32,000 nt of DNA from Massilicoli timonensis. Its GTDB lineage: Bacteria; Bacillota_I; Bacilli_A; Erysipelotrichales; Erysipelotrichaceae. The stretch lies in contig NZ_LT963434.1 in NCBI RefSeq assembly GCF_900199515.1, positions 1,396,050 to 1,428,049 of the forward strand, read 5' to 3'. The notes under the pieces are model-generated. The model was not told the DNA's origin. It saw nothing but the letters and a program-made list of their open reading frames with translations, and searched no databases. Positions 5,795-24,962 of this stretch are shown piece by piece. Position 1 is the stretch's first letter, and every line of letters begins with the position of its first letter. The translations under genes and the position numbers were made by a program.

Positions 5795-6931
5795 ATGAAA
5801 AATACGTTTGGAAGCAATATTCAGTACACCCTGTTTGGAGAAAGCCATGGTGAAGCAATCGGTATCGTGATTGACGGATTGCCGGCGGGGATCGCATTAG
5901 ATCTTGATTTAATGGAAAGACAGATGGAAAAGCGCAAAGCGAAAGGGAAAATTTCGACACAGCGAAAAGAAGCAGATCAAGTAAAGATCATCAGCGGTTA
6001 TTTCAACGGTCATACAAGCGGAACACCTTTGACGATCCTGATTGAAAATACAAATGTCAAATCACAGGATTATGCGCGAACCCAGATGCTGCTGCGGCCA
6101 TCGCATGCAGATTACAGCGCACATGTAAAATATCGCGGTTTTGAAGATTATCGCGGCGGCGGACATTTCAGCGGACGATTGACCGCACCGATCGTTGCGG
6201 CCGGCAGCATTGCCATGCAAATCTTACAACAGTTGGGCGTACAGATCGCAACACATATTGAAAAGCTGCATGATTTAGAAGATGTGCGCTTTGGACAAAC
6301 GATCGAAGAAGTGGAAACGCAGATTGCTTATTTGCAAGATCGCTCATTTCCGACATTAGATGAAACATGTGGAAAAGCAATGATAGAAAAGATCGAAGCC
6401 TGTGCAAAACAAAAAGACAGCGTTGGCGGAATATTGGAAAGTGCAGCGATCCATGTGCCGGCGGGACTAGGCGAACCGTTTTTTGATTCGATCGAGAGCA
6501 TTCTTGCACATCTGCTGTTTTCGATACCGGCGGTAAAAGGCGTATCCTTCGGCAGTGGATTTGACTTTGCGAATTTGTATGGGAGTGAAGCGAATGATGC
6601 CTTTGCATTAAAAGAAGGAAAGATCGTGACCAAAAGCAATCATAATGGCGGAATCAACGGCGGGATCACCAATGGTATGCCAATTCATCTGCATACGGTG
6701 ATCAAAGCAACCCCATCTATTTACCAAGAGCAGGACAGCGTTGATCTGCAAAGCGGAAAAGAAGCAAAACTGACGATCAAAGGCAGACATGATCCGGCTA
6801 TTTTACACCGGGCGGCGGTCGTCGTAGACAGTATGATCGCCATTGGCCTATTAGAAGCACTTTGTCAGCAAGAAGCAGGTATGGCGTTGATCAAACAAAT
6901 GAGCAGTAACGAAAGAGGAATGATAGTATGA
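5795..6931 (+). CDS. aroC: Chorismate synthase
   Basis: FGESHG, RPSHADY, RGGGHFSGR and GRHDP motifs characteristic of AroC. Confidence 0.95.
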   Translation: MKNTFGSNIQYTLFGESHGEAIGIVIDGLPAGIALDLDLMERQMEKRKAKGKISTQRKEADQVKIISGYFNGHTSGTPLTILIENTNVKSQDYARTQMLLRPSHADYSAHVKYRGFEDYRGGGHFSGRLTAPIVAAGSIAMQILQQLGVQIATHIEKLHDLEDVRFGQTIEEVETQIAYLQDRSFPTLDETCGKAMIEKIEACAKQKDSVGGILESAAIHVPAGLGEPFFDSIESILAHLLFSIPAVKGVSFGSGFDFANLYGSEANDAFALKEGKIVTKSNHNGGINGGITNGMPIHLHTVIKATPSIYQEQDSVDLQSGKEAKLTIKGRHDPAILHRAAVVVDSMIAIGLLEALCQQEAGMALIKQMSSNERGMIV

Positions 6932-7944
6932 TTATTACAATGAAGAAAACGGCAACACAAAAAGATCTCGATTCCATCATTTCTATGATCGAATCAAAAG
7001 GATTACATGTCAATATGATTTCCGGTACAAGTTACAATGTATTCGGTGTAGTCGGTGATACGACGATTTTGGATATGAAGACCATTGAAGCAAATAACAA
7101 GGTTGAAAGCGTCATGCGTGTATCTGAGCCGTATAAGAAAGTAAACCGGTTATTTCATCCGGAAGATACGATCGTAGATGTAAATGGTATCAAGATCGGC
7201 GGAAAAGAGAAGATCGTCGTAATCGGCGGACCTTGTTCAGTCGAGGGACAGGAACAAATATCCCGCATTGCCAAAGAAGTAAAAGAAGCGGGAGCGGATA
7301 TGCTAAGAGGAGGCGCTTATAAGCCGCGTACTTCCCCATATGCGTTTCAGGGATTAGGTTTTGCAGGCATCATGAATTTGGAACAGGCAAAGAAAGAAAC
7401 CGGTATGCCGATCGTCAGTGAAATCATGAGCGTAGATAAAATTGATGAATTTGTGGAGCATGTGGATATTTTGCAGGTTGGCGCCCGCAATATGCAGAAT
7501 TTCGATCTGTTAAAAGCACTTGGTAAAACCAATAAGCCGATCTTGCTGAAGCGCGGACTTTCCAACACGATCGAAGAATGGCTGATGTCGGCAGAATATA
7601 TCATGGCAGGTGGTAATCCGAATGTGATCTTATGTGAACGCGGTATTCGCACCTTTGAAAAATATACGCGCAACACATTAGATCTCAGCGTCATTCCGAT
7701 CATTAAAAAGAAAACACATCTGCCGATCATCATCGATCCATCCCATGCGACAGGCGATTGGGAACTGGTGGAAGCAATGAGCTTAGCAGCGATCGCGGCG
7801 GGTGCAGATGGTTTGATCATTGAAGTGCATGACCATCCGGAGTGTGCGTGGAGCGATGGGGCACAGTCATTAAAACCAAAACGCTTCAAAGAACTGATCG
7901 AAAAAGGGCGTGTGATCGCCAATGTTGTAGGACGCAGCATGTAG
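6928..7944 (+). CDS. aroF: DAHP synthase, type I-beta, with N-terminal ferredoxin-like regulatory domain (paralogue 1)
   Basis: GAYKPRTSPYAFQGLG, VGARNMQN and IIDPSHATG are typical of the DAHPS/KDO8PS I-beta family. A ~75-aa N-terminal extension resembles that of Thermotoga-type regulated DAHPS. ATGA overlap with aroC. Confidence 0.9.
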   Translation: MIITMKKTATQKDLDSIISMIESKGLHVNMISGTSYNVFGVVGDTTILDMKTIEANNKVESVMRVSEPYKKVNRLFHPEDTIVDVNGIKIGGKEKIVVIGGPCSVEGQEQISRIAKEVKEAGADMLRGGAYKPRTSPYAFQGLGFAGIMNLEQAKKETGMPIVSEIMSVDKIDEFVEHVDILQVGARNMQNFDLLKALGKTNKPILLKRGLSNTIEEWLMSAEYIMAGGNPNVILCERGIRTFEKYTRNTLDLSVIPIIKKKTHLPIIIDPSHATGDWELVEAMSLAAIAAGADGLIIEVHDHPECAWSDGAQSLKPKRFKELIEKGRVIANVVGRSM

Positions 7945-7954
7945 GAGGAATTTT

Positions 7955-8974
7955 ATGATCATAACCGTAAAGGCGAATATTCCCGAAAAAGAACTGGAAC
8001 GAATCAAAAGACAGTTTGAAGAACAGGGCTTTCAAATCAATGACAGCTGTGGCGCCAATTATCATATATTGGGACTGATCGGAGATACGACCACATTAGA
8101 TGAAAAATCGATCTTAGCAGATCCTTATATTTCACAAGTTACGCGTATCGCCGTTCCTTATAAACAGGCCAGCAGGCAATTTCATCCGGAAGATACGATC
8201 GTAGATGTAAATGGTATCAAGATCGGCGGAAAAGAGAAGATCGTCATAATCGGCGGACCTTGTTCAGTCGAGGGACAGGAACAAATATCCCGCATTGCCA
8301 AGGAAGTAAAAGAAGCGGGAGCGGATATGTTAAGAGGAGGCGCTTATAAGCCGCGTACTTCCCCATATGCGTTTCAGGGATTAGGTTTTGCAGGCATCAT
8401 GAATTTAGAACAGGCAAAAAAAGAAACCGGTATGCCGATCGTATCAGAACTGATGGACAGCGAACAGTTGGAGGAATTTGTCGAACATGTGGATATCATT
8501 CAGATTGGCGCCCGCAATATGCAAAACTTTTCTTTATTGAAAGCGGTCGGAAAGACGAAAAAACCGGTACTGTTAAAAAGAGGGCTGGCAAATACGATCG
8601 AAGAGTGGATCATGTCGGCAGAATATATTTTGGCGCAGGGCAACCCCAATGTCATCTTGTGCGAACGCGGCATTCGCACCTTTGAAAAATATACGCGCAA
8701 CACATTAGATCTCAGCGTCATTCCGATCATCAAAGAAAAAACACATCTGCCGATCATCATTGATCCATCGCATGCGACCGGCGATTGGAAACTGGTAGAA
8801 GCGATGAGCTTGGCGGCAGTTGTGGCAGGCGCAGATGGTTTGATGATTGAAGTGCATGACCATCCGGAATGTGCATGGAGCGACGGTGCGCAAAGCGTAA
8901 AGCCAAAACGCTTCAAAGAGATCATTGAAAAATGTCGAAAAGCAGCAAAGATCGTCGAAAGGGAATTAGGATGA
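7955..8974 (+). CDS. aroF: DAHP synthase, type I-beta, paralogue 2 (tandem duplicate with divergent N-terminal domain)
   Basis: Same catalytic motifs as paralogue 1. Nucleotides 8181-8442 differ from 7154-7415 at only 5 of 262 positions, whereas the first ~75 codons are highly diverged. Confidence 0.9.
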   Translation: MIITVKANIPEKELERIKRQFEEQGFQINDSCGANYHILGLIGDTTTLDEKSILADPYISQVTRIAVPYKQASRQFHPEDTIVDVNGIKIGGKEKIVIIGGPCSVEGQEQISRIAKEVKEAGADMLRGGAYKPRTSPYAFQGLGFAGIMNLEQAKKETGMPIVSELMDSEQLEEFVEHVDIIQIGARNMQNFSLLKAVGKTKKPVLLKRGLANTIEEWIMSAEYILAQGNPNVILCERGIRTFEKYTRNTLDLSVIPIIKEKTHLPIIIDPSHATGDWKLVEAMSLAAVVAGADGLMIEVHDHPECAWSDGAQSVKPKRFKEIIEKCRKAAKIVERELG

Positions 8975-12573: not shown

Positions 12574-12606
12574 AAAAAAGGAACCTCATGCAAAGAAGTT
12601 CCTTTT
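12574..12606 (-). terminator. Rho-independent terminator after nrdG
   Basis: AAGGAAC/GTTCCTT stem (12578-12584/12598-12604). On the minus strand it is followed by TTTTTT. Confidence 0.7.
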
Positions 12607-12611
12607 ATGGT

Positions 12612-13139
12612 CTATTCATCAAGATGCTGATTGACCTCATCATAAGCGCTCAAGATCACCTGCTGCTTTGCCAGCGACTGCTGCACATCAATGATCCGCT
12701 GATTTTTGGATCCTTTGAAGCGCAGTCGATAATCTTTTTGTGCTTCAATGAAACGTCCGTCTACCAATACGTCTATATGTTCCAGCAGTGCTTTTTTCTC
12801 TTTGTCACACAGCAGTTCCTCAAATGTATAACCACTGTATGCCCAGACGTTGAGCTTCATTTCCTCTTTCGCAAAGACAGCGATCGGAATCAGCGCCGCG
12901 CTTTGATCAAAGGGTTCACCGCCGGATAAGGTCAGCCCGCTTTGTAAACGGATCTGTTTCATCTCCTCGATGATACGTGTTACATCCACTGATACACCGC
13001 CGTTTGGATCGTGTGTCTGAGGATTATGACAGTTTGGGCAGTGATGGGGACAGCCTTGTGTCCAAAGCACCATGCGTAAGCCCGGTCCATCAACGATACT
13101 GTCTCTTTGCAGATCAGAAGCAAGCCTTACACTAAGCAT
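12612..13139 (-). CDS. nrdG: Anaerobic ribonucleoside-triphosphate reductase activating protein (radical SAM)
   Basis: VDGPGLRMVLWTQGCPHHCPNCHNP (CX3CX2C), GLTLSGGEP. 8-nt overlap with nrdD. Confidence 0.93.
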   Translation of the reverse strand: MLSVRLASDLQRDSIVDGPGLRMVLWTQGCPHHCPNCHNPQTHDPNGGVSVDVTRIIEEMKQIRLQSGLTLSGGEPFDQSAALIPIAVFAKEEMKLNVWAYSGYTFEELLCDKEKKALLEHIDVLVDGRFIEAQKDYRLRFKGSKNQRIIDVQQSLAKQQVILSAYDEVNQHLDE

Positions 13140-15480
13140 GCTTTACGCGATCTCTTTCTTCAGCCGCCTTGGAATCATTGAAACGGTCAAGTGTACCTAC
13201 TAAATAGCCGGTAATACGTCTGATCTTTTCAAATTTCATTTCGCTCTTGTATTCATCACGGCCGCATTTCGGGCATACATGTCCTTCGATCACTCCGCTG
13301 TATCCGCAGACCGGATCACGATCCACCGGATGATTGATGCTGCCATAGCCGACGCCGGCTTCTTTCATACATCTTACGATTGCTTCAAATGCTTCCAAGT
13401 TGTTGCATGGATCGCCGTCCACCTCTACATAGGAAATATGACCGGCATTGGTAAAGGCATGATATGGTGCTTCTCGTTCGATCTTTTCAAAGGCGCCGAT
13501 GTGATAGTAAACCGGTACATGGAAGCTGTTGGTATAATATTCACGATCGGTAACGCCCGGAACCACACCGTAAAGTTTTTTATCAATGCGCGTAAAGCGT
13601 CCGGATAATCCTTCTGCCGGAGTGGCGATCAAAGAGAAATTGAGATGATACTGATTCATCGCCTCATCCATGCGATCACGCATATGACCGATGATCTTTA
13701 AGCCTAAAGCCTGCGCTTCATCACTTTCTCCGTGATGTTTTCCAATCAGCGCTTTCAAGCATTCCGCTAAGCCGATAAAGCCAACGGTAAGAGTACCTTG
13801 CTTGATCACTTCTTCTAACGTATCATTCCAGTTTAACTTATCAGCGCCGAGCCATACACCCTGTCCCATTAAGAACGGGAAGTTTTTCACTTTCTTTTGT
13901 CCCTGGATCGCCATACGCTCTAATAACTGCTGAATGACAGAATCGATTTTCTCATCTAATTCCTGGAAGAAACCGGCTTCATCGAATTTACCGTTTAATG
14001 CCACACCGTGCTTTAAGCCTAAACGCGGAAGGTTAATGGAAGTAAAGGACAAATTGCCTCGTCCGGTTACGATTTCCGGTCCGCAGCAGTTGCTGATCAC
14101 ACGCGTACGGCATCCCATATAAGTCGCTTCCGTATCCGGATCTCCTTCCTTATAATATTGCAAATTGAACGGTGCATCCAAGAAAGAAAAGTTCGGGAAC
14201 AAACGCTTTGCGGAAACGCGGCAGCTTAACTTGAACAAGTCATAGTTTGGATCGCCTTCATTGTAATTGACGCCTTCTTTTACTTTGAAGATCAAGATCG
14301 GGAAGATCGGTGTTTCCCCATTGCCCAGACCTGCTTCCTGTGCTAATAACAGATTTTTCGATACCATACGACCTTCACTGCTGGTATCGGTGCCGAAGTT
14401 GATGCTGCTGAAAGGAACCTGTGCGCCGGCACGAGAGTGCATCGTATTCAAATTATGGATAAAGCCTTCCATTGACTGGAATGTCTTTTTATCAGTGTCT
14501 TTCAAAGCATTGCGATAAGCAAATTCCTCGATCAGATCCATTTGTTTATTGCCGATATGATAGGTATCGTGCAAGAAAGTACGCTGCTTTTCTAAATATT
14601 CCTGTTTCATATCGATTTCCGGCTGCATGCCCCATGCTTTGATTTGGTTTTCTAAGCTATCCTTCAGATCGATTTCATCATCGACCAGCACTTCCAAAGC
14701 ACGGCTTAAATTGCGGATATATTCGCGTTTGAAGGTTTTGCGTACGCCCGGTGCCAAATAGTAGTCAAAGGATGGAATGCTCTGTCCGCCATGCTGATCA
14801 TTTTGATCGCTTTGGATCGCAATCGCCGCTAATGCCCCATAGCTTAAAATATCCTGCGGTTCACGCAGATGACCGTGTCCTGTTGAGAAACCGCCGTTAA
14901 ATAATTTATTCAGATCGATCTGACAGCAGGTCAAAGTACCCATATTCATAAAGTCCATATCATGAATATGAATGTCGCCGTTTTCGTGCATTTTCGCATG
15001 CAGCGGATTCATGACTTCATTCATACAGAATTCTTTAGAAATGGCGCTGCCGTATTGCAGCATCGTACCCATTGCGGTATTACCGTCAATATTGGCGTTT
15101 TCACGCTTGACATCGCCGTCCTCACCATCGGCATCCGCATATGTGATCTGTCCGATCGCTTTCATGATGCGGGATTTGGAGTTACGGATTCGAGAACGCT
15201 GATCACGATACAAAATGTATGCCTCTGCGGTTTTCGCATGTCCTTCTTCGATCAGCACTTTAATGACCGCATCCTGAATATCCTCTACATTAGGGGTCGC
15301 GTCAAAGTGTGATTCAAGATAATGAATGACCTTAGTCGTCAAAAGTTCGGCAGTTGTGTAGTCCGCTTCCTTTCCTTCCTGCGATGCTACGCTGTTGGCT
15401 GCTAAATAAATGGCCCGTGTAATTTTTTCCGGGGTGAAATGGATTTCGCGTCCATCTCTTTTTTGGATCATCGTAATCAT
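13132..15480 (-). CDS. nrdD: Anaerobic ribonucleoside-triphosphate reductase (class III), full length
   Basis: N-terminal ATP-cone (IQKRDGREIHFTPEKITRAI), finger-loop MGCRT, SINLPRLG, C-terminal Cys pairs (CGYSG...CPKCG) and glycyl-radical motif RRITGYLVG. Confidence 0.96.
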   Translation of the reverse strand: MITMIQKRDGREIHFTPEKITRAIYLAANSVASQEGKEADYTTAELLTTKVIHYLESHFDATPNVEDIQDAVIKVLIEEGHAKTAEAYILYRDQRSRIRNSKSRIMKAIGQITYADADGEDGDVKRENANIDGNTAMGTMLQYGSAISKEFCMNEVMNPLHAKMHENGDIHIHDMDFMNMGTLTCCQIDLNKLFNGGFSTGHGHLREPQDILSYGALAAIAIQSDQNDQHGGQSIPSFDYYLAPGVRKTFKREYIRNLSRALEVLVDDEIDLKDSLENQIKAWGMQPEIDMKQEYLEKQRTFLHDTYHIGNKQMDLIEEFAYRNALKDTDKKTFQSMEGFIHNLNTMHSRAGAQVPFSSINFGTDTSSEGRMVSKNLLLAQEAGLGNGETPIFPILIFKVKEGVNYNEGDPNYDLFKLSCRVSAKRLFPNFSFLDAPFNLQYYKEGDPDTEATYMGCRTRVISNCCGPEIVTGRGNLSFTSINLPRLGLKHGVALNGKFDEAGFFQELDEKIDSVIQQLLERMAIQGQKKVKNFPFLMGQGVWLGADKLNWNDTLEEVIKQGTLTVGFIGLAECLKALIGKHHGESDEAQALGLKIIGHMRDRMDEAMNQYHLNFSLIATPAEGLSGRFTRIDKKLYGVVPGVTDREYYTNSFHVPVYYHIGAFEKIEREAPYHAFTNAGHISYVEVDGDPCNNLEAFEAIVRCMKEAGVGYGSINHPVDRDPVCGYSGVIEGHVCPKCGRDEYKSEMKFEKIRRITGYLVGTLDRFNDSKAAEERDRVKHA

Positions 15481-15718
15481 AATTCTCTTCCTTTCTTAGT
15501 TGATCATTTTGCCTGTTTTCAGAATCGGTTTTCTTCTTGCACAAACAGGTATATTTTAACGAAATTCATATTTGATTTCCAGTAGGAAACTTCATTTTCA
15601 AAAATTTTACAATTTTCTCCTACAATGTGTTGGATGAAATGAAGGCAGAAACCTTCGCTTTGTGAAAAGATCGCTTCTTTGATTGTTCAGATATGTTTTC
15701 AGTAAAGAAACTATCATT

Positions 15719-17605
15719 TCATTGTGTGGATAAAGATAATTGAAAATACGGAAGCCGATAGTGTTTCAATACCTTTTTTACCAATAGCTCCAGTATTTCG
15801 GTATCCGTCTGCGGATCCTCTAAATGGATCGTGAATAAAGGGCCGGCAGTAAAGAGCGGCTGTAATGTGTTTGCCAGATCCATCTGCTCAAAGAGGTCGG
15901 AAGGCGGATGAGGAGGCAGAAAGACGCCGGCGCTGTAGACATCGCTTGCATGCATGTCCTTTTCCATTTGCGGATAACGGCTGCGATCGCTTTTCGCAAA
16001 GCGCTGAAGACAGGTCGATTGCATTGTTTCCGCCAGATTAAAAGCGCATCCATACTGCTTTTGATAACCGATCAGCTTTACGCGCATATGGGTCAATACA
16101 GCTTTCGCAAACGCCTGTGTTTTCTCGTGCAATAAATCTTGCTTCAGCCAGTTCGCATAAATACCGGCTTCATTCATCCCGACGATGCCGATCGTGGCAA
16201 AATGGTTCGCAAAGCTGTGCAGGTAGCGTTTGGTATAAGGATATAAGCCTGCTTCCATGAGTTTGTCTAATACACTGCGCTTCATTTGCAAAGCGCGTGC
16301 CGCCAGATCCATCTGCTTATCTAACTTCACATAGAAATCCGTTTCATCTTCCGCCAAATAAGCGATGCGCGGCAGATTGATCGTAACCGTTCCGATCGAG
16401 CCGCTGTGCACAGCGCTGAGTTGTTCGCCGGCTGCGTGAGAAAGCTGATTTGCACTAGCTTGATGAACGTTCATGCCTTGCCAAAGCGCCTTTATATCTG
16501 CATTTTGTTCATTGATCAAACGCGGTGTGCCGCATTCTTTGATCAGCTGAAACAGCAGCTGTTTGTTTGGGTGATCGCTTGTTAGGATGGCTTCTGCCGG
16601 ATAAAAAGGAATCGGATAGCGGAACGGGTTTTGCTTGCCGTCTTTTTTTAACAATACACTGAAAAATGCCTGATTGATCAGATCCATTTCCTTTTGACAT
16701 TCTCCATAAGTAAACGCGGCACAAACCCCACCGACAATCGCTCTTCGATCGGCAAGATGTTTTGGCACATGCCAGTCAAACGCAATATGGATATCGGGAA
16801 GTCGTGCGCCCCATCGGCTTGGTGCATTGATGCCGTAGATCAATGCTTCCATCGCATTTTTCACTTCTTCAAAGGAAAGCTGTTCCCATTTTACAAAGGG
16901 CGCTAAATAGGTGTCAAAGGAAAGCATGGACTGTGTGCCTGCCCATTCGTTCTGCATGATGCCTAAAAAGGTATGCAGCTGATTGCAAAGAGTAAACAAA
17001 TGACGAGCCGGTTTGGCACTCGCTTCACTGTAAAGCCCATCTAAACCTTCCTCGATCAACTGCTTCGGCGACCAGCCTGCGCTTACTGCACTCAGCATGG
17101 ATAAATCGTGAATATGCAGATCTGCGTTTCGATGCGCCTCGGCGATTTCTTCATCATACACCTCATAAAGCCAGTAATTTCTGCTGATCGCAGCGCTGTT
17201 GCTGAAAATCAGACCTCCCATTGAAAAAGGAGCGGTGGCGTCGTTGTGTGTCAGCGCGCTTTTATCCTTTACATAGCTGTCGATCATCTCTTTGTGGTCG
17301 AGCAGCGTCGATTTCATATCGCGTACTTTTTCTCTTTGCTTACGGTAAAGAATATAAGCCTTGGCAACTTCGTGATAGCCGGACTGGATCAATATGGACT
17401 CTACACTGTCCTGGATATCCTCGACCTGAACGGCGTTGCTTTTGATCTTGCTGTCGAAATCAGCAGTTACCCGCAGCGCCAAAAGATCAATGACCGAAGG
17501 ATGGATGCTGGTGCCGGTTGCCTGAAAAGCCTTTTGGATGGCAGCGGTAATTTTGGCAATATCAAACGCCGCTTTCTTGCCGTCACGCTTCATTACTTCA
17601 TACAC
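15719..17605 (-). CDS. NrdD-like class III RNR paralogue with ATP-cone but without recognisable catalytic Cys or Zn-ribbon/glycyl-radical domain
   Basis: GTG 17605 (or ATG 17593, a TAATG overlap with the upstream gene). ATP-cone VMKRDGKKAAFDIAKITAAI. NrdD core blocks LHIHDL, SFDTYLAP and TINLPRIA. Ends at ...LPYFQLSLSTQ, which aligns just before the Zn-ribbon of the neighbouring NrdD. Confidence 0.85.
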   Translation of the reverse strand: MYEVMKRDGKKAAFDIAKITAAIQKAFQATGTSIHPSVIDLLALRVTADFDSKIKSNAVQVEDIQDSVESILIQSGYHEVAKAYILYRKQREKVRDMKSTLLDHKEMIDSYVKDKSALTHNDATAPFSMGGLIFSNSAAISRNYWLYEVYDEEIAEAHRNADLHIHDLSMLSAVSAGWSPKQLIEEGLDGLYSEASAKPARHLFTLCNQLHTFLGIMQNEWAGTQSMLSFDTYLAPFVKWEQLSFEEVKNAMEALIYGINAPSRWGARLPDIHIAFDWHVPKHLADRRAIVGGVCAAFTYGECQKEMDLINQAFFSVLLKKDGKQNPFRYPIPFYPAEAILTSDHPNKQLLFQLIKECGTPRLINEQNADIKALWQGMNVHQASANQLSHAAGEQLSAVHSGSIGTVTINLPRIAYLAEDETDFYVKLDKQMDLAARALQMKRSVLDKLMEAGLYPYTKRYLHSFANHFATIGIVGMNEAGIYANWLKQDLLHEKTQAFAKAVLTHMRVKLIGYQKQYGCAFNLAETMQSTCLQRFAKSDRSRYPQMEKDMHASDVYSAGVFLPPHPPSDLFEQMDLANTLQPLFTAGPLFTIHLEDPQTDTEILELLVKKVLKHYRLPYFQLSLSTQ

Positions 17606-18750
17606 ATGCCGTCACGCTCCTTTCCTTCTTTGATCTGCACACAAGCGACACTTTCCGCAAGAATTGCCTGAAAGGTGCGCATCGTATCCATATTGACCGG
17701 ATGCAGACCGGATTGGATGATCTGCCCATTGTCCTCAAATACCTGCAATACACATTTCTTGGCACCGCGCAGTAGTTCTTTCATTTCCAGCAGATCGCTT
17801 TTTTCATGCAGTTCTTTGACGATCGTCGTACGAAACTCATAGGGGACGAGTCCCTGCTTCAAAAAATCAATGCTTTCTTGGATCAAATGAAAATCAAGAT
17901 CATCAATGCCGGCGCTTTCCCCATAGCGTGTCCACCCGTTCTTAACATCCATCGCCACATAATCGACATAACCGTTTCTAACCAGCTCTTTCAAATAAGC
18001 GGGATATGCGCCGTTTGTATCTAATTTGATCCGGTAGCCGAGATCATGCAGCTTGCTTAAAAACGGCCGCAGCTCGTGCATCAGCGGTTCCCCGCCGCTT
18101 AAAGTGACGCAGTCGATCAGACCTGCTCGTTTGCTTAAATAAGAGAAGATCGTATCGCCGCTGATTTCATTTTGACCTTCGCTTACATAGACGAGGTTGC
18201 TGTTTTTACAGAACGGACAGCGAAAATTACAGCCGCCGGTATAAAGAACACAGGCAAGATTGCCGGGATAGTCGCGAAATGACACCTTCTGCATCTCAAA
18301 GAGCTTAAGCGATCCTCTCTTTACATCATCAAAGCTGCGTGCATTTTCACAAAGCTTCGATTGAATGCGGGAAAAAGCAGTGATATCCGCCTCCTCCATG
18401 TCTTGCGTCAAATGCTCCCACCAGTCTTTTCTTACCATATAAAGCTGGGCGATCATTCCTTTGGTTTGATCGGTCGTATATAAACGCTTTACACGCTTAT
18501 CCGCTTCGTCACTTGCCATTGCGACATAATTGCTCTGCATGAGCTTCTGTATGCTTTTGGTGATCGTTCCCTTGTCATAGCCGCACATATCTGCTAAGCG
18601 ATTCATCGCGATGCCTTCATGTTCATAAATCTGAATCAGGATCGGCAAATGAGAGAAATTGATGTCATAGGCTTCCAGACATTTGTCATAATACTTTTGG
18701 GTGCAGCGATATAAGATCGAGGTATCCATTAAAATATCACTGTCTTTCAT
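17593..18750 (-). CDS. Fusion protein: N-terminal MarR-type winged-helix domain plus C-terminal NrdG/PflA-like radical-SAM activase domain
   Basis: ORF 17593-18804. AGGAGG with 9-nt spacing favours ATG 18750. MarR-like region INFSHLPILIQIYEHEGIAMNRLADMCGYDKGTITKSIQKLMQSNYVAMASDEADKRVKRLYTT. Radical-SAM CVLYTGGCNFRCPFCKNS, TLSGGEPLMH, KLDTNG. Confidence 0.85.
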   Translation of the reverse strand: MKDSDILMDTSILYRCTQKYYDKCLEAYDINFSHLPILIQIYEHEGIAMNRLADMCGYDKGTITKSIQKLMQSNYVAMASDEADKRVKRLYTTDQTKGMIAQLYMVRKDWWEHLTQDMEEADITAFSRIQSKLCENARSFDDVKRGSLKLFEMQKVSFRDYPGNLACVLYTGGCNFRCPFCKNSNLVYVSEGQNEISGDTIFSYLSKRAGLIDCVTLSGGEPLMHELRPFLSKLHDLGYRIKLDTNGAYPAYLKELVRNGYVDYVAMDVKNGWTRYGESAGIDDLDFHLIQESIDFLKQGLVPYEFRTTIVKELHEKSDLLEMKELLRGAKKCVLQVFEDNGQIIQSGLHPVNMDTMRTFQAILAESVACVQIKEGKERDGMCMK

Positions 18751-18775: not shown

Positions 18776-18804
18776 ATGATAGCACTAGATAGTTGAACAT
18801 TCAA
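18776..18804 (-). promoter_or_regulatory. Promoter of the marR-activase / nrdD-like operon
   Basis: On the minus strand: TTGAAT (18804-18799), 17-nt spacer, TATCAT (18781-18776), ~26 nt upstream of the ATG at 18750. Confidence 0.55.
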
Positions 18805-18808
18805 CTAT
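18789..18808. promoter_or_regulatory. 20-bp palindromic candidate operator (ATAGTTGAA-CA-TTCAACTAT)
   Basis: Perfect 9-bp inverted arms around a 2-bp centre. Covers the -35 hexamer and part of the spacer of the promoter above, the typical geometry of an autoregulated MarR operator. Confidence 0.6.
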
Positions 18809-23726: not shown

Positions 23727-24962
23727 TTACCAAGAGGTTTTTTGTTCTTCCTTTTTCAGTTTGGAAAAATCCACATGGCAATAGCCGTTTGGATTTTTTA
23801 ACAGATACTGCTGATGATACGCCTCTGCATCATAAAAGCAGGTAAGCGGCTGCACCTCGGTCAAGATCGGCGACGGATAGTCTGCCTGCTTCTTTTGGAT
23901 CCAGGTGCGGATCGTTTCTTCGTCCGCTTGATCCAGATAGTAAACACCGGTGCGGTATTGACTGCCCCGATCTTCTCCTTGTTCATGGTAGGCGGTAGGA
24001 TCAATGATACGAAACAGCAGCTCTAGGATCAAAGGAAGATCGATCAGACGATCATCGTATTGGAGACGGCACGCTTCCACATGATTGGTTTGATCACTGC
24101 ATACTTCTTCATAGGTAGGGTTTGCGGTAAATCCTTGCGCATAGCCAACACTTGTCTGTAAGATGCCTTTGACGCGGCGATAATATTCCTGTACGCCCCA
24201 AAAACAGCCGCCTGCTACGACGATTTCATGCAGATGCTTGGCATTTTCACATAAATCCCGAACGACCTTGGATGCGGCAGCCAGTCCTGCGGCAGGAGGA
24301 ACAAACGATGAACTGGCAGGCGGTATTTTCGCTTTGCGGGTCTTTCCATCCGCATTGATGATACGGTTTTGTACGATCGGCTGCTCTGTTGAAAAAATGA
24401 CCGGTATTCTGCCATAGATCCGCTGTTTTTTTACAAGACTGCGCAGTATTTTTGCCAATGGATCATAGCTTGTCTGATCCAGTGTCGTGATCGTGATCTT
24501 GGTGGGATCGAGGCGATTTGCCATGCCCAAAGAACTGATAAAAGGAATCTTTTTTTCCAGACAAGTCTGTATCAGTTCCAGTTTAGCGCTGATCGTATCG
24601 ATCGCGTCTACGACATAGTCGATTTTTTGTGAAAACAGCTGTTCATTTATCGCTTTACTGTAAAAGCAGTCATAACAAATGATCGTGCAGTCTTTGCGGT
24701 ACGACTTGATCCGTTCTTTCATGACCGCAGTCTTTGCTTTGCCGATGGTTCCATAATCAGCATGGATCTGTCGGTTCAAATTGCTTTCGGCAACGATGTC
24801 ATGATCGACTAAGATCAAAGTGCCGATCCCGCTGCGTGCCAATGCTTCGGCAGCAAAAGAACCGACCCCGCCGATGCCGACGATCATAACGGTTGCATGA
24901 CTTACAGCCTGCATGCCTTTTTCTTTTAAGAGCAGGCGGGTCCTTGTTTTAGCATCTTCCAT
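23727..24962 (-). CDS. Fusion protein: ThiF/TcdA-like tRNA t6A dehydratase domain plus peptide-methionine (S)-S-oxide reductase MsrA domain
   Basis: N-terminal VMIVGIGGVGSFAAEALARSGIGTLILVDHDIVAESNLNRQ (E1-like/TcdA). C-terminal VVAGGCFWGVQEYY...GYAQG...NPTYEEVC (MsrA with catalytic GCFWG). One uninterrupted 411-codon ORF. Confidence 0.85.
   Translation of the reverse strand: MEDAKTRTRLLLKEKGMQAVSHATVMIVGIGGVGSFAAEALARSGIGTLILVDHDIVAESNLNRQIHADYGTIGKAKTAVMKERIKSYRKDCTIICYDCFYSKAINEQLFSQKIDYVVDAIDTISAKLELIQTCLEKKIPFISSLGMANRLDPTKITITTLDQTSYDPLAKILRSLVKKQRIYGRIPVIFSTEQPIVQNRIINADGKTRKAKIPPASSSFVPPAAGLAAASKVVRDLCENAKHLHEIVVAGGCFWGVQEYYRRVKGILQTSVGYAQGFTANPTYEEVCSDQTNHVEACRLQYDDRLIDLPLILELLFRIIDPTAYHEQGEDRGSQYRTGVYYLDQADEETIRTWIQKKQADYPSPILTEVQPLTCFYDAEAYHQQYLLKNPNGYCHVDFSKLKKEEQKTSW

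Follow-up and report, generated by a model that had tools for sequence, protein, structure and literature searches.

A class III ribonucleotide reductase homologue without catalytic residues beside a MarR-NrdG2 fusion gene in Massilicoli timonensis

What is left of a reductase when its catalytic residues are gone and its reading frame is still open? The question is raised by an open reading frame (ORF) at 15719..17605 on the minus strand of the window, by which is meant the whole stretch of 32,000 nucleotides analysed here from Massilicoli timonensis (Erysipelotrichaceae; contig NZ_LT963434.1). The gene has a GTG start and encodes a protein of 628 amino acids (WP_102268596.1), annotated 'ribonucleoside triphosphate reductase' and called pseudo-NrdD2 below, which is built up by an ATP-cone and a degenerate barrel of class III ribonucleotide reductase (RNR). 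It is the second of four genes located head-to-tail on the minus strand: MarR-NrdG2 fusion, pseudo-NrdD2, NrdD1 and NrdG1. Few enzyme families have been studied as well as the RNRs, whose catalytic cysteine is described as conserved across all known members. An earlier note on this DNA, made from its letters and translated ORFs, had taken the protein for a catalytically dead NrdD paralogue that might be a pseudo-enzyme or an allosteric sensor. The explanation that we consider best, with belief only slightly outweighing doubt, is that pseudo-NrdD2 is a non-catalytic NrdD2 pseudoenzyme and the ATP/dATP-sensing partner of MarR-NrdG2.

Loss of catalytic residues and retention of the ATP-cone

The adjacent NrdD1, used as comparator in the earlier note, was replaced by the parent family of pseudo-NrdD2. 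Its true relatives are thioredoxin-fused NrdD2 proteins (NrdD2-Trx) of about 790 amino acids, 51-53% identical to pseudo-NrdD2 and found in Holdemania, Sharpea, Longicatena, Amedibacterium, [Clostridium] innocuum and many Clostridia. Besides ATP-cone and barrel, these proteins possess a Zn site, the glycyl-radical loop SRITGYYRPV and, at the C-terminus, a thioredoxin-like domain (TCPNC). The comparison set comprised 80 genomic NrdD2 homologues and a hidden Markov model (HMM) built from them, with alignment by hmmalign. The register follows from a functional relative (P0033) that could be aligned to Thermotoga maritima (Tm) NrdD across 536 residues: Tyr174-Cys175 corresponds to Tm Tyr124-Cys125, SMCCR to Tm 328-SCCR-331 (MGC290R in phage T4) and the glycine of RITGY to Tm Gly621.

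Both active-site cysteines are replaced in the ORF, as had been claimed. GYCAGWS in the family has become VSAGWS (Tyr174Val and Cys175Ser), and the codon of Ser175 (17081..17083, minus strand), preceded by that of Val174, occupies the site of the universally conserved cysteine of beta-strand A (T4 Cys79, Tm Cys125, Pc Cys171). The finger loop has a remnant at residues 366-401 (16403..16510, minus strand) in which S-M-C-C-R has become G-M-N-V-H, and residues 359-519 contain no cysteine at all. The finger-loop cysteine is thus lost, as the earlier note had said, but its equivalent is Asn379/Val380 and not methionine; residues 379 and 380 are polymorphic among strains. The register of this loop is ambiguous owing to a length difference of three residues, but no register yields a cysteine.

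Other parts of the active site have changed as well. The family's substrate-phosphate loop, EATPAES(T), reads AETMQST(C) in pseudo-NrdD2; the phosphate loop with the N-terminus of its helix is located at 577-581 in PcNrdD (EATPAE in the family). YYTNSSH reads VYSAGVF, and the flap (NxN-flap) region is degenerate. The residues that read the specificity site and loop 2 are substituted (N212T, T261A, Q268R and F271D, corresponding to Tm Gln161, Gln218, Gln224 and Tyr227). The triphosphate-binding HxHD motif is retained (H164, H166, D167).

The stop codon TGA (15719..15721, minus strand) comes one residue ahead of the first Zn-site cysteine of the family. The earlier note was right in that the Zn and glycyl-radical C-terminus is absent, but the loss amounts to about 165 residues relative to NrdD2-Trx and not about 65: Zn site, glycyl-radical loop, linker and the thioredoxin/glutaredoxin-like domain (PF00462/PF00085, with CPNC in TCPNC) are all missing. 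Remnants were searched for in the spacer and in the whole window with the C-termini of two functional relatives (tblastn, E<=100) and by three-frame translation. No C-terminal remnant was found in the 238-bp spacer by either approach, which agrees with the earlier statement that it holds no Cys-rich or RxxGY sequence, and the only tblastn matches in the window were the glycyl-radical region of NrdD1 and the end of pseudo-NrdD2 itself. In-frame read-through past the stop adds only 32 residues, with no cysteine and no RxxGY. A separately encoded glycyl-radical protein had also been suggested as a search target; within the 32-kb window there is no ORF for such a spare part in trans and none resembling GrcA, the six-frame pattern R[IVTL][STAC]G[YFW] being credible only at RITGY in NrdD1.

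Pseudo-NrdD2 is almost certainly dead as an RNR. Nucleotide reduction is not to be expected because the thiyl-radical cysteine, the bottom-face cysteine, the glycyl-radical domain, the Zn site and the thioredoxin domain are gone and the phosphate loop and base readers are changed. To judge from these residues, the name 'ribonucleoside triphosphate reductase' is a functional misannotation. The Prokaryotic Genome Annotation Pipeline (PGAP) gives this name because the protein scores 624.9 bits with NF006126, an NCBIfam 'equivalog' model with a curated cutoff of 548. The match covers profile positions 2-625 of 684, and the C-terminal ~59 positions (626-684) are unmatched. With TIGR02487 the score is 269 bits, under the cutoff of 326. 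Other dead homologues will receive the same reductase name. Without a check of the Cys and Gly motifs, too many functional reductases will be counted in RNR censuses and in metabolic reconstructions for gut Erysipelotrichaceae.

The ATP-cone is the part that has been preserved. PF03477 matches residues 3-92 (17330..17599, minus strand) with 81.8 bits in Pfam. K6, R7, Y87, R88, R91 and R95 are kept and align with Lys7, Arg8, Tyr83, Arg84, Arg87 and Arg91 of PcNrdD, whose ATP-cone binds two nucleotides via Lys7, Arg8, Tyr83, Arg87 and Arg91. All these nucleotide-ligand residues are present in the sequence of pseudo-NrdD2; the ATP-cone fold is retained together with its nucleotide-binding residues, and binding is predicted. 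The NRDD domain (PF13597) matches residues 126-624 with 332 bits (profile positions 6-505 of 562) and corresponds to the homologous 10-stranded alpha/beta barrel. The earlier statement that the ATP-cone and much of the barrel are retained holds for the cone, where 31 of 31 family-invariant columns (those conserved to at least 97%) are kept, and only in part for the barrel, since 168 of 406 invariant columns (41%) are altered in the protein. Structure prediction, which had been proposed as a check, gives the same picture: the best Foldseek matches of the AlphaFold2 model are class III RNRs, with template modelling (TM) scores of 0.55-0.65 to NrdD structures. The predicted local distance difference test (pLDDT) value is 79-89 in the ATP-cone, low exactly where segments are degenerate and below 50 in the finger loop.

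Descent, selection and dead homologues

In Amedibacterium intestinale, [C.] innocuum and L087 a MarR-NrdG2 gene (378-380 amino acids) lies directly upstream of a full-length NrdD2-Trx of 789-792 amino acids. The ancestral state, as this gene order indicates, is MarR-NrdG2 combined with full-length NrdD2-Trx. The locus in Massilicoli has the same layout, with pseudo-NrdD2 immediately 3' of MarR-NrdG2 and a palindrome with the core GTTGAAnnnTCAAC at the promoter. We lean towards regarding pseudo-NrdD2 as a non-catalytic descendant of the thioredoxin-fused, T. maritima-type NrdD2 that is normally found 3' of MarR-NrdG2 in Erysipelotrichaceae. Its divergence has been accelerated, with 51% identity to relatives that are 77% identical among themselves, and that of its MarR-NrdG2 partner is near-normal (46-50% identity versus 57-58% among relatives). 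Erysipelotrichaceae relatives carry NrdD1 as well as NrdD2, and in the closest relative of NrdD1 the gene order is tmk-holB-PSP1-rsmI-[two-component system]-nrdD1-nrdG1. The block of marR-nrdG2 and the truncated nrdD2 between rsmI and nrdD1 would therefore not be ancestral, because this relative has no such block there. The 3' end of nrdD2 may have been lost in the relocation. No insertion junction was identified upstream of nrdD1, where the regions are too divergent from those of relatives to be aligned.

An assembly or sequencing artefact was rejected, as the same 628 amino acid gene is found in an isolate genome as well as in more than 14 contigs from independent metagenome assemblies. Four DNA alleles of pseudo-NrdD2 were available as a population sample, with 24 synonymous, 18 non-synonymous and one nonsense change segregating. 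The ratio of non-synonymous to synonymous polymorphism (pN/pS) is 0.20, with pairwise values of 0.13-0.20, and neutrality is rejected (P=4.6e-7), so the conservation check that had been called for comes out in favour of constraint. For MarR-NrdG2 the ratio is 0.046, a strong constraint. Genome and metagenome contig scans for more divergent orthologues suited to dN/dS analysis gave only functional homologues with about 50% identity and the near-identical L091 (OERY01001472.1), of which only the 3' part was used. That contig is chimeric: in positions 1-545, unrelated DNA rich in GC and a piece of a functional-type NrdD2 have been joined to the Massilicoli gene at the conserved stretch GIMQNEWAG.

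The reading frame and the pattern of retained residues point in the same direction. When a functional coding sequence was mutated at random to 70% or 51% amino acid identity, 200 runs of this neutral decay gave on average 9.9 and 15.8 stops, respectively, and an open frame in none of the 200. Of the family-invariant columns, pseudo-NrdD2 keeps all in the ATP-cone, 82% in residues 402-520, 65% in the N-terminal core, 36% in the C-terminal core, 18% in the linker and flap and 16% in the finger loop, an uneven distribution (chi-square, P=3e-19).

Homologues with similar losses were found by a HMMER search over 1.84 billion cluster representatives, from which the best 150 representatives (50%-identity clusters) were aligned to the HMM of the functional family. 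About 22 of these 150 lack the same catalytic residues as pseudo-NrdD2. Seven of them (P0377, P0387, P0388, P0389, P0393, P0394 and P0473; 601-632 amino acids) have neither Zn site nor glycyl-radical loop. Six of the seven stop at the same boundary as pseudo-NrdD2 (for example '...IPYYKIISKK', '...IPYLSL' and '...IPFFRIAAQN'), and the tail of P0389 has diverged. P0385 (782 amino acids) has a thioredoxin-like domain without CxxC and an Asn-rich linker in place of the radical domain, P0378 and P0384 have long acidic tails, and the HxHD motif is lost in several of the dead homologues (P0393 and P0394). The 90% cluster of P0388 has 64 members: 14 of the 15 listed are 611 amino acids long and one is 571.

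In an alignment of 14 dead proteins with about 40% pairwise identity, there are 75 columns in which 13 or more of them have the same residue. Per 100 amino acids these columns number 28 in the ATP-cone (K6, R7 and VAKAYILYR among them), 14 in the N-terminal core, 11 in the middle core and 2.8 in the C-terminal core, with none in the flap or the finger loop. A MarR-NrdG2 gene is the neighbour in all three contexts examined (pseudo-NrdD2, P0377 and P0388). The genes of P0377 and P0388 start 2-17 nt downstream of the fusion gene, in which CxxxCxxC and GGEPL are intact. Pseudo-NrdD2 apparently belongs to a diverse and seemingly undescribed group of non-catalytic NrdD2-like proteins, which is proposed here and not curated; no description of a dead NrdD, a pseudoenzyme RNR or a MarR-NrdG fusion was found in the searchable literature, and nothing relevant on NrdD of Erysipelotrichaceae either. 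Four of the dead proteins are 'intermediate' forms. P0385 and P0384 have a thioredoxin-like domain whose CxxC is lost or half lost, and low-complexity linkers in place of the glycyl-radical domain. P0392 and P0397 keep RV[AS]GYY and have lost the finger-loop cysteine pair; the cysteine of beta-strand A is kept in P0392 and lost in P0397.

A neutral pseudogene is disfavoured because of the purifying selection, the retained ORF, the domain-specific constraint and the divergent dead homologues in which the ATP-cone is best conserved. Some non-catalytic role very probably keeps pseudo-NrdD2 under selection. The same four observations support the pseudo-enzyme reading of the earlier note; its allosteric-sensor part is plausible and is something that we infer.

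The MarR-NrdG2 partner and a possible regulatory role

The MarR-NrdG2 fusion gene (17593..18750, minus strand) overlaps the start of pseudo-NrdD2 by 13 nt and encodes 385 amino acids, with a MarR winged helix in the N-terminal part and a radical S-adenosylmethionine (SAM) activase in the C-terminal part. The activase part scores 175.6 bits with TIGR02495, and its CxxxCxxC radical-SAM motif (C174, C178 and C181; 18208..18231, minus strand) is intact, as is GGEPL. More than 120 homologues of 376-395 amino acids, from Erysipelotrichaceae such as [Clostridium] innocuum, Amedibacterium and Longicatena, have the same fusion and are annotated just as 'activating protein'; it is also present in L087-L090, L179 and L180. 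The NrdG2 found upstream of NrdD2 in Clostridia and other taxa has no MarR domain. The C-terminal tail of the fusion in Massilicoli (…KEGKERDGMCMK) is longer than the tails of its relatives. A 12-nt direct repeat, AGCGTGACGGCA, with copies 29 nt apart, spans the gene junction (17578-17619, minus strand), and the two copies are read in different frames, one as ERDG within the C-terminal extension of the fusion protein and the other as KRDG at the beginning of pseudo-NrdD2.

The palindrome TAGTTGAATGTTCAACTA (18790..18807) lies over the -35 box of a promoter-like site for marR-nrdG2. Its core is also found upstream of orthologous fusion genes (L087, L088 and L090), in one or two copies flanking the -10 box, and once in Massilicoli. 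The palindrome is likely to be an autoregulatory MarR operator, a putative function suggested by its position and recurrence.

The gene downstream of pseudo-NrdD2 is a bona fide NrdD1 (13132..15480, minus strand; 782 amino acids) with ATP-cone, cysteine pair, Zn ribbon and RRITGY. It scores 1126 bits with NF005497 and shares 74-78% identity with the NrdD1 proteins of other Erysipelotrichaceae. Its activase NrdG1 (12612..13139, minus strand) has 175 amino acids. The spacer between pseudo-NrdD2 and nrdD1 (15481..15718, minus strand) contains only a weak promoter-like site, and terminator prediction found no terminator-like site in it. One transcript spanning marR-nrdG2 to nrdG1 is possible because the only terminator, a strong terminator-like hairpin at 12576..12606 on the minus strand, is located downstream of all four nrd genes. 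An Rfam scan of the operon gave no credible riboswitch or leader.

These features suggest how pseudo-NrdD2 might act. It would serve as an oligomerising scaffold which senses ATP/dATP and binds to the activase part of its cognate MarR-NrdG2, and the dATP/ATP state would determine binding of the MarR domain to DNA at the conserved GTTGAAnnnTCAAC operator. In Massilicoli the control could extend to the downstream nrdD1-nrdG1, because there is no terminator between pseudo-NrdD2 and nrdD1. A role in sensing or regulation through the ATP-cone together with MarR-NrdG2 is proposed tentatively, as a possibility somewhat short of an even chance. More doubtful is the specific form of a two-protein transcriptional switch, in which the ATP-cone and oligomeric state would read dATP/ATP, the [4Fe-4S]/SAM of the partner would read redox or oxygen, and the two would jointly set MarR DNA binding. 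Such a switch would have evolved once or repeatedly from a working class III RNR operon.

Several observations weigh against this explanation. Binding of MarR-NrdG2 is not assured because pseudo-NrdD2 lacks the glycyl-radical/Zn domain, which is considered the main contact site of activases. The base-reading residues of the specificity site, Asn212 and Thr261, are changed; sensing would most likely be through the ATP-cone only, because both the specificity-site and the loop-2 readers have been substituted. The AlphaFold2 model is of moderate confidence only (mean pLDDT 65.7). No second operator palindrome is present in the window, including the region before nrdD1. The flanks of P0377 and P0388 are otherwise unrelated and no nrd gene follows them, so control of nrdD1 would not be a general function because nothing of the kind lies 3' of these two dead genes. 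In a neighbour-joining tree the long-branch dead sequences are scattered round a slow-evolving functional clade, which fits one origin or several. Constraint on pseudo-NrdD2 is about three-fold weaker than on its neighbours (0.20 versus pooled 0.07; Fisher P=0.018). A nonsense allele also segregates: the codon TTA of Leu319 (16649..16651, minus strand) is TAA in a minority allele from three independent samples (L175, L176 and L177). The change adjoins a run of A (TTAAAAAAA to TAAAAAAAA), and the remaining gene is intact in L175. Full-length pseudo-NrdD2 is dispensable in at least some strains because this L319* allele segregates.

The weaker constraint, the nonsense allele and the altered 41% of family-invariant columns are what would be expected of a slowly decaying relic. 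According to such a history the formate-type NrdD1-NrdG1 made NrdD2 redundant, the 3' end of nrdD2 was lost as the operon moved to its place in front of nrdD1, and no protein function is left; the ORF is kept open only through polarity on nrdD1-nrdG1 or translational coupling with marR-nrdG2. Redundancy is plausible in that Erysipelotrichaceae relatives hold both NrdD1 and NrdD2. The synteny of rsmI, the two-component system and nrdD1 in the closest NrdD1 relative implies block insertion, and nrdD1 is not preceded by a terminator. Polarity, however, selects against stops only and not against missense changes, and yet pN/pS is 0.20 (P=4.6e-7). Constraint is domain-specific, with all 31 ATP-cone invariants kept, and divergent dead homologues preserve 600 amino acid ORFs and ATP-cone motifs where no downstream nrd gene could be affected. 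A relic thus appears improbable. Hardly better placed, and also unlikely, is a subunit that regulates or buffers NrdD1, either by forming dATP-dependent hetero-oligomers with it via the ATP-cone and the outer barrel helices or by buffering ATP/dATP, thereby tuning reductase activity. The fully conserved ATP-cone of pseudo-NrdD2 would serve this role, the outer helices map to the well-retained segment 402-520 (82% of invariants kept), and the gene adjoins nrdD1 and is possibly co-transcribed with it. On the other hand, NrdD1 scores 215 bits with NF006126 against 624.9 for pseudo-NrdD2, which in turn scores 170 bits with the model of NrdD1; specific hetero-oligomers are less likely because the two proteins are only distantly related. 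Moreover, other dead homologues are not located beside NrdD1, their conserved partner being MarR-NrdG2, and the authors of the PcNrdD study point out that conservation is poor among the core residues with which the cone makes contact.

A different chemistry is the least probable of these alternatives, and we regard it as very unlikely. The barrel and ATP-cone would bind a nucleotide-like substrate on which the radical-SAM neighbour acts directly, with no glycyl or thiyl radical on the protein; in a variant, a glycyl-radical domain is supplied in trans. It would explain why the partner keeps CxxxCxxC and GGEPL in three of three dead-gene loci though its normal substrate glycine is gone, and it fits the triphosphate-binding HxHD kept in pseudo-NrdD2. 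There is, however, no recognisable new active site, because the flap and finger loop of the dead homologues hold no conserved residues and the C-terminal core only 2.8 per 100 amino acids, and HxHD itself is lost in P0393 and P0394. The variant meets the difficulty that the 32-kb window encodes no glycyl-radical 'spare part' and that, even with a glycyl radical in trans, no cysteine is available for the relay.

Some features of the window lie apart from the nrd genes. The ORF at 23727-24962 (minus strand, 411 amino acids) is ThiF-like in its N-terminal half and MsrA-like, with the motif GCFWG, in its C-terminal half; L171, a relative, has separate neighbouring genes for ThiF (242 amino acids) and PMSR (171 amino acids). 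Two paralogues of 3-deoxy-D-arabino-heptulosonate 7-phosphate (DAHP) synthase, of 338 and 339 amino acids, are in tandem at 6928-8974 (plus strand) in the window, for which L002-L004 were compared; strain L003 has a single copy, so the copy number varies among strains. Beside tmk (equivalent to ~22650), L002 and L003 have a Tn916-like integrase/Xis element with sigma-factor and helix-turn-helix (HTH) genes, and in the window, L005 and L178 the tmk-adjacent site is occupied by a purine-nucleoside-phosphorylase gene.

Comparison with known systems

A conserved ATP-cone without radical machinery would make these proteins the first bacterial pseudo-RNR family. The set of dead NrdD2 proteins is a natural experiment on what an ATP-cone and an RNR scaffold do without catalysis, and the fusion of an activase to MarR is a little-noticed architecture that ties radical-enzyme activation to transcription. 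If the switch proposed above is true, it would be a new control of deoxynucleotide supply in anaerobic Firmicutes, independent of NrdR, and pseudo-NrdD2 would become the first pseudo-RNR of a bacterium to be assigned a role.

The nearest known system is T. maritima-type NrdD2/NrdDh (NF006126), which pseudo-NrdD2 resembles in model score (624.9 bits), identity (51-53%), ATP-cone, barrel fold, HxHD and the activase gene upstream. It differs in having no Tyr174-Cys175, SMCCR pair, EATPAE loop, loop-2 readers, Zn site, RxxGY or thioredoxin domain. Pseudo-NrdD2 is not classifiable as a functional member of NrdD2 when these differences in sequence are considered.

Dead homologues of RNR are known from other branches of the superfamily, namely R1 homologues of betaherpesviruses (M45 of murine cytomegalovirus, MCMV, and UL45 of human cytomegalovirus, HCMV) and yeast Rnr4, an inactive R2 paralogue. 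Their roles are in inhibition of cell-death signalling and in cofactor assembly and heterodimer partnership, respectively. Like pseudo-NrdD2, they are RNR-family proteins that have lost catalytic residues and are kept for a non-catalytic role. They derive, however, from class I subunits of eukaryotes and viruses, and their roles are unrelated; literature searches gave no example of a dead RNR from class III or from bacteria.

The 'spare part' protein GrcA/YfiD illustrates the same modularity of glycyl-radical enzymes, with a barrel core and a detachable radical domain. Pseudo-NrdD2 is the reciprocal piece, a core without the radical domain, and it also lacks the cysteine that would use the radical.

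For the proposed regulatory role the closest analogy is NrdR, a transcriptional repressor of nrd operons composed of an ATP-cone and a zinc ribbon. The ATP-cone is the best-conserved element of pseudo-NrdD2, which is likewise associated with nrd genes, and by analogy an ATP-cone would in both cases read the adenine-nucleotide state with DNA binding as output. The structure of Streptomyces coelicolor NrdR is cited in the PcNrdD study. Unlike NrdR, pseudo-NrdD2 has no DNA-binding domain of its own and carries a dead RNR barrel of 530 residues; binding to DNA would instead be contributed by MarR-NrdG2.

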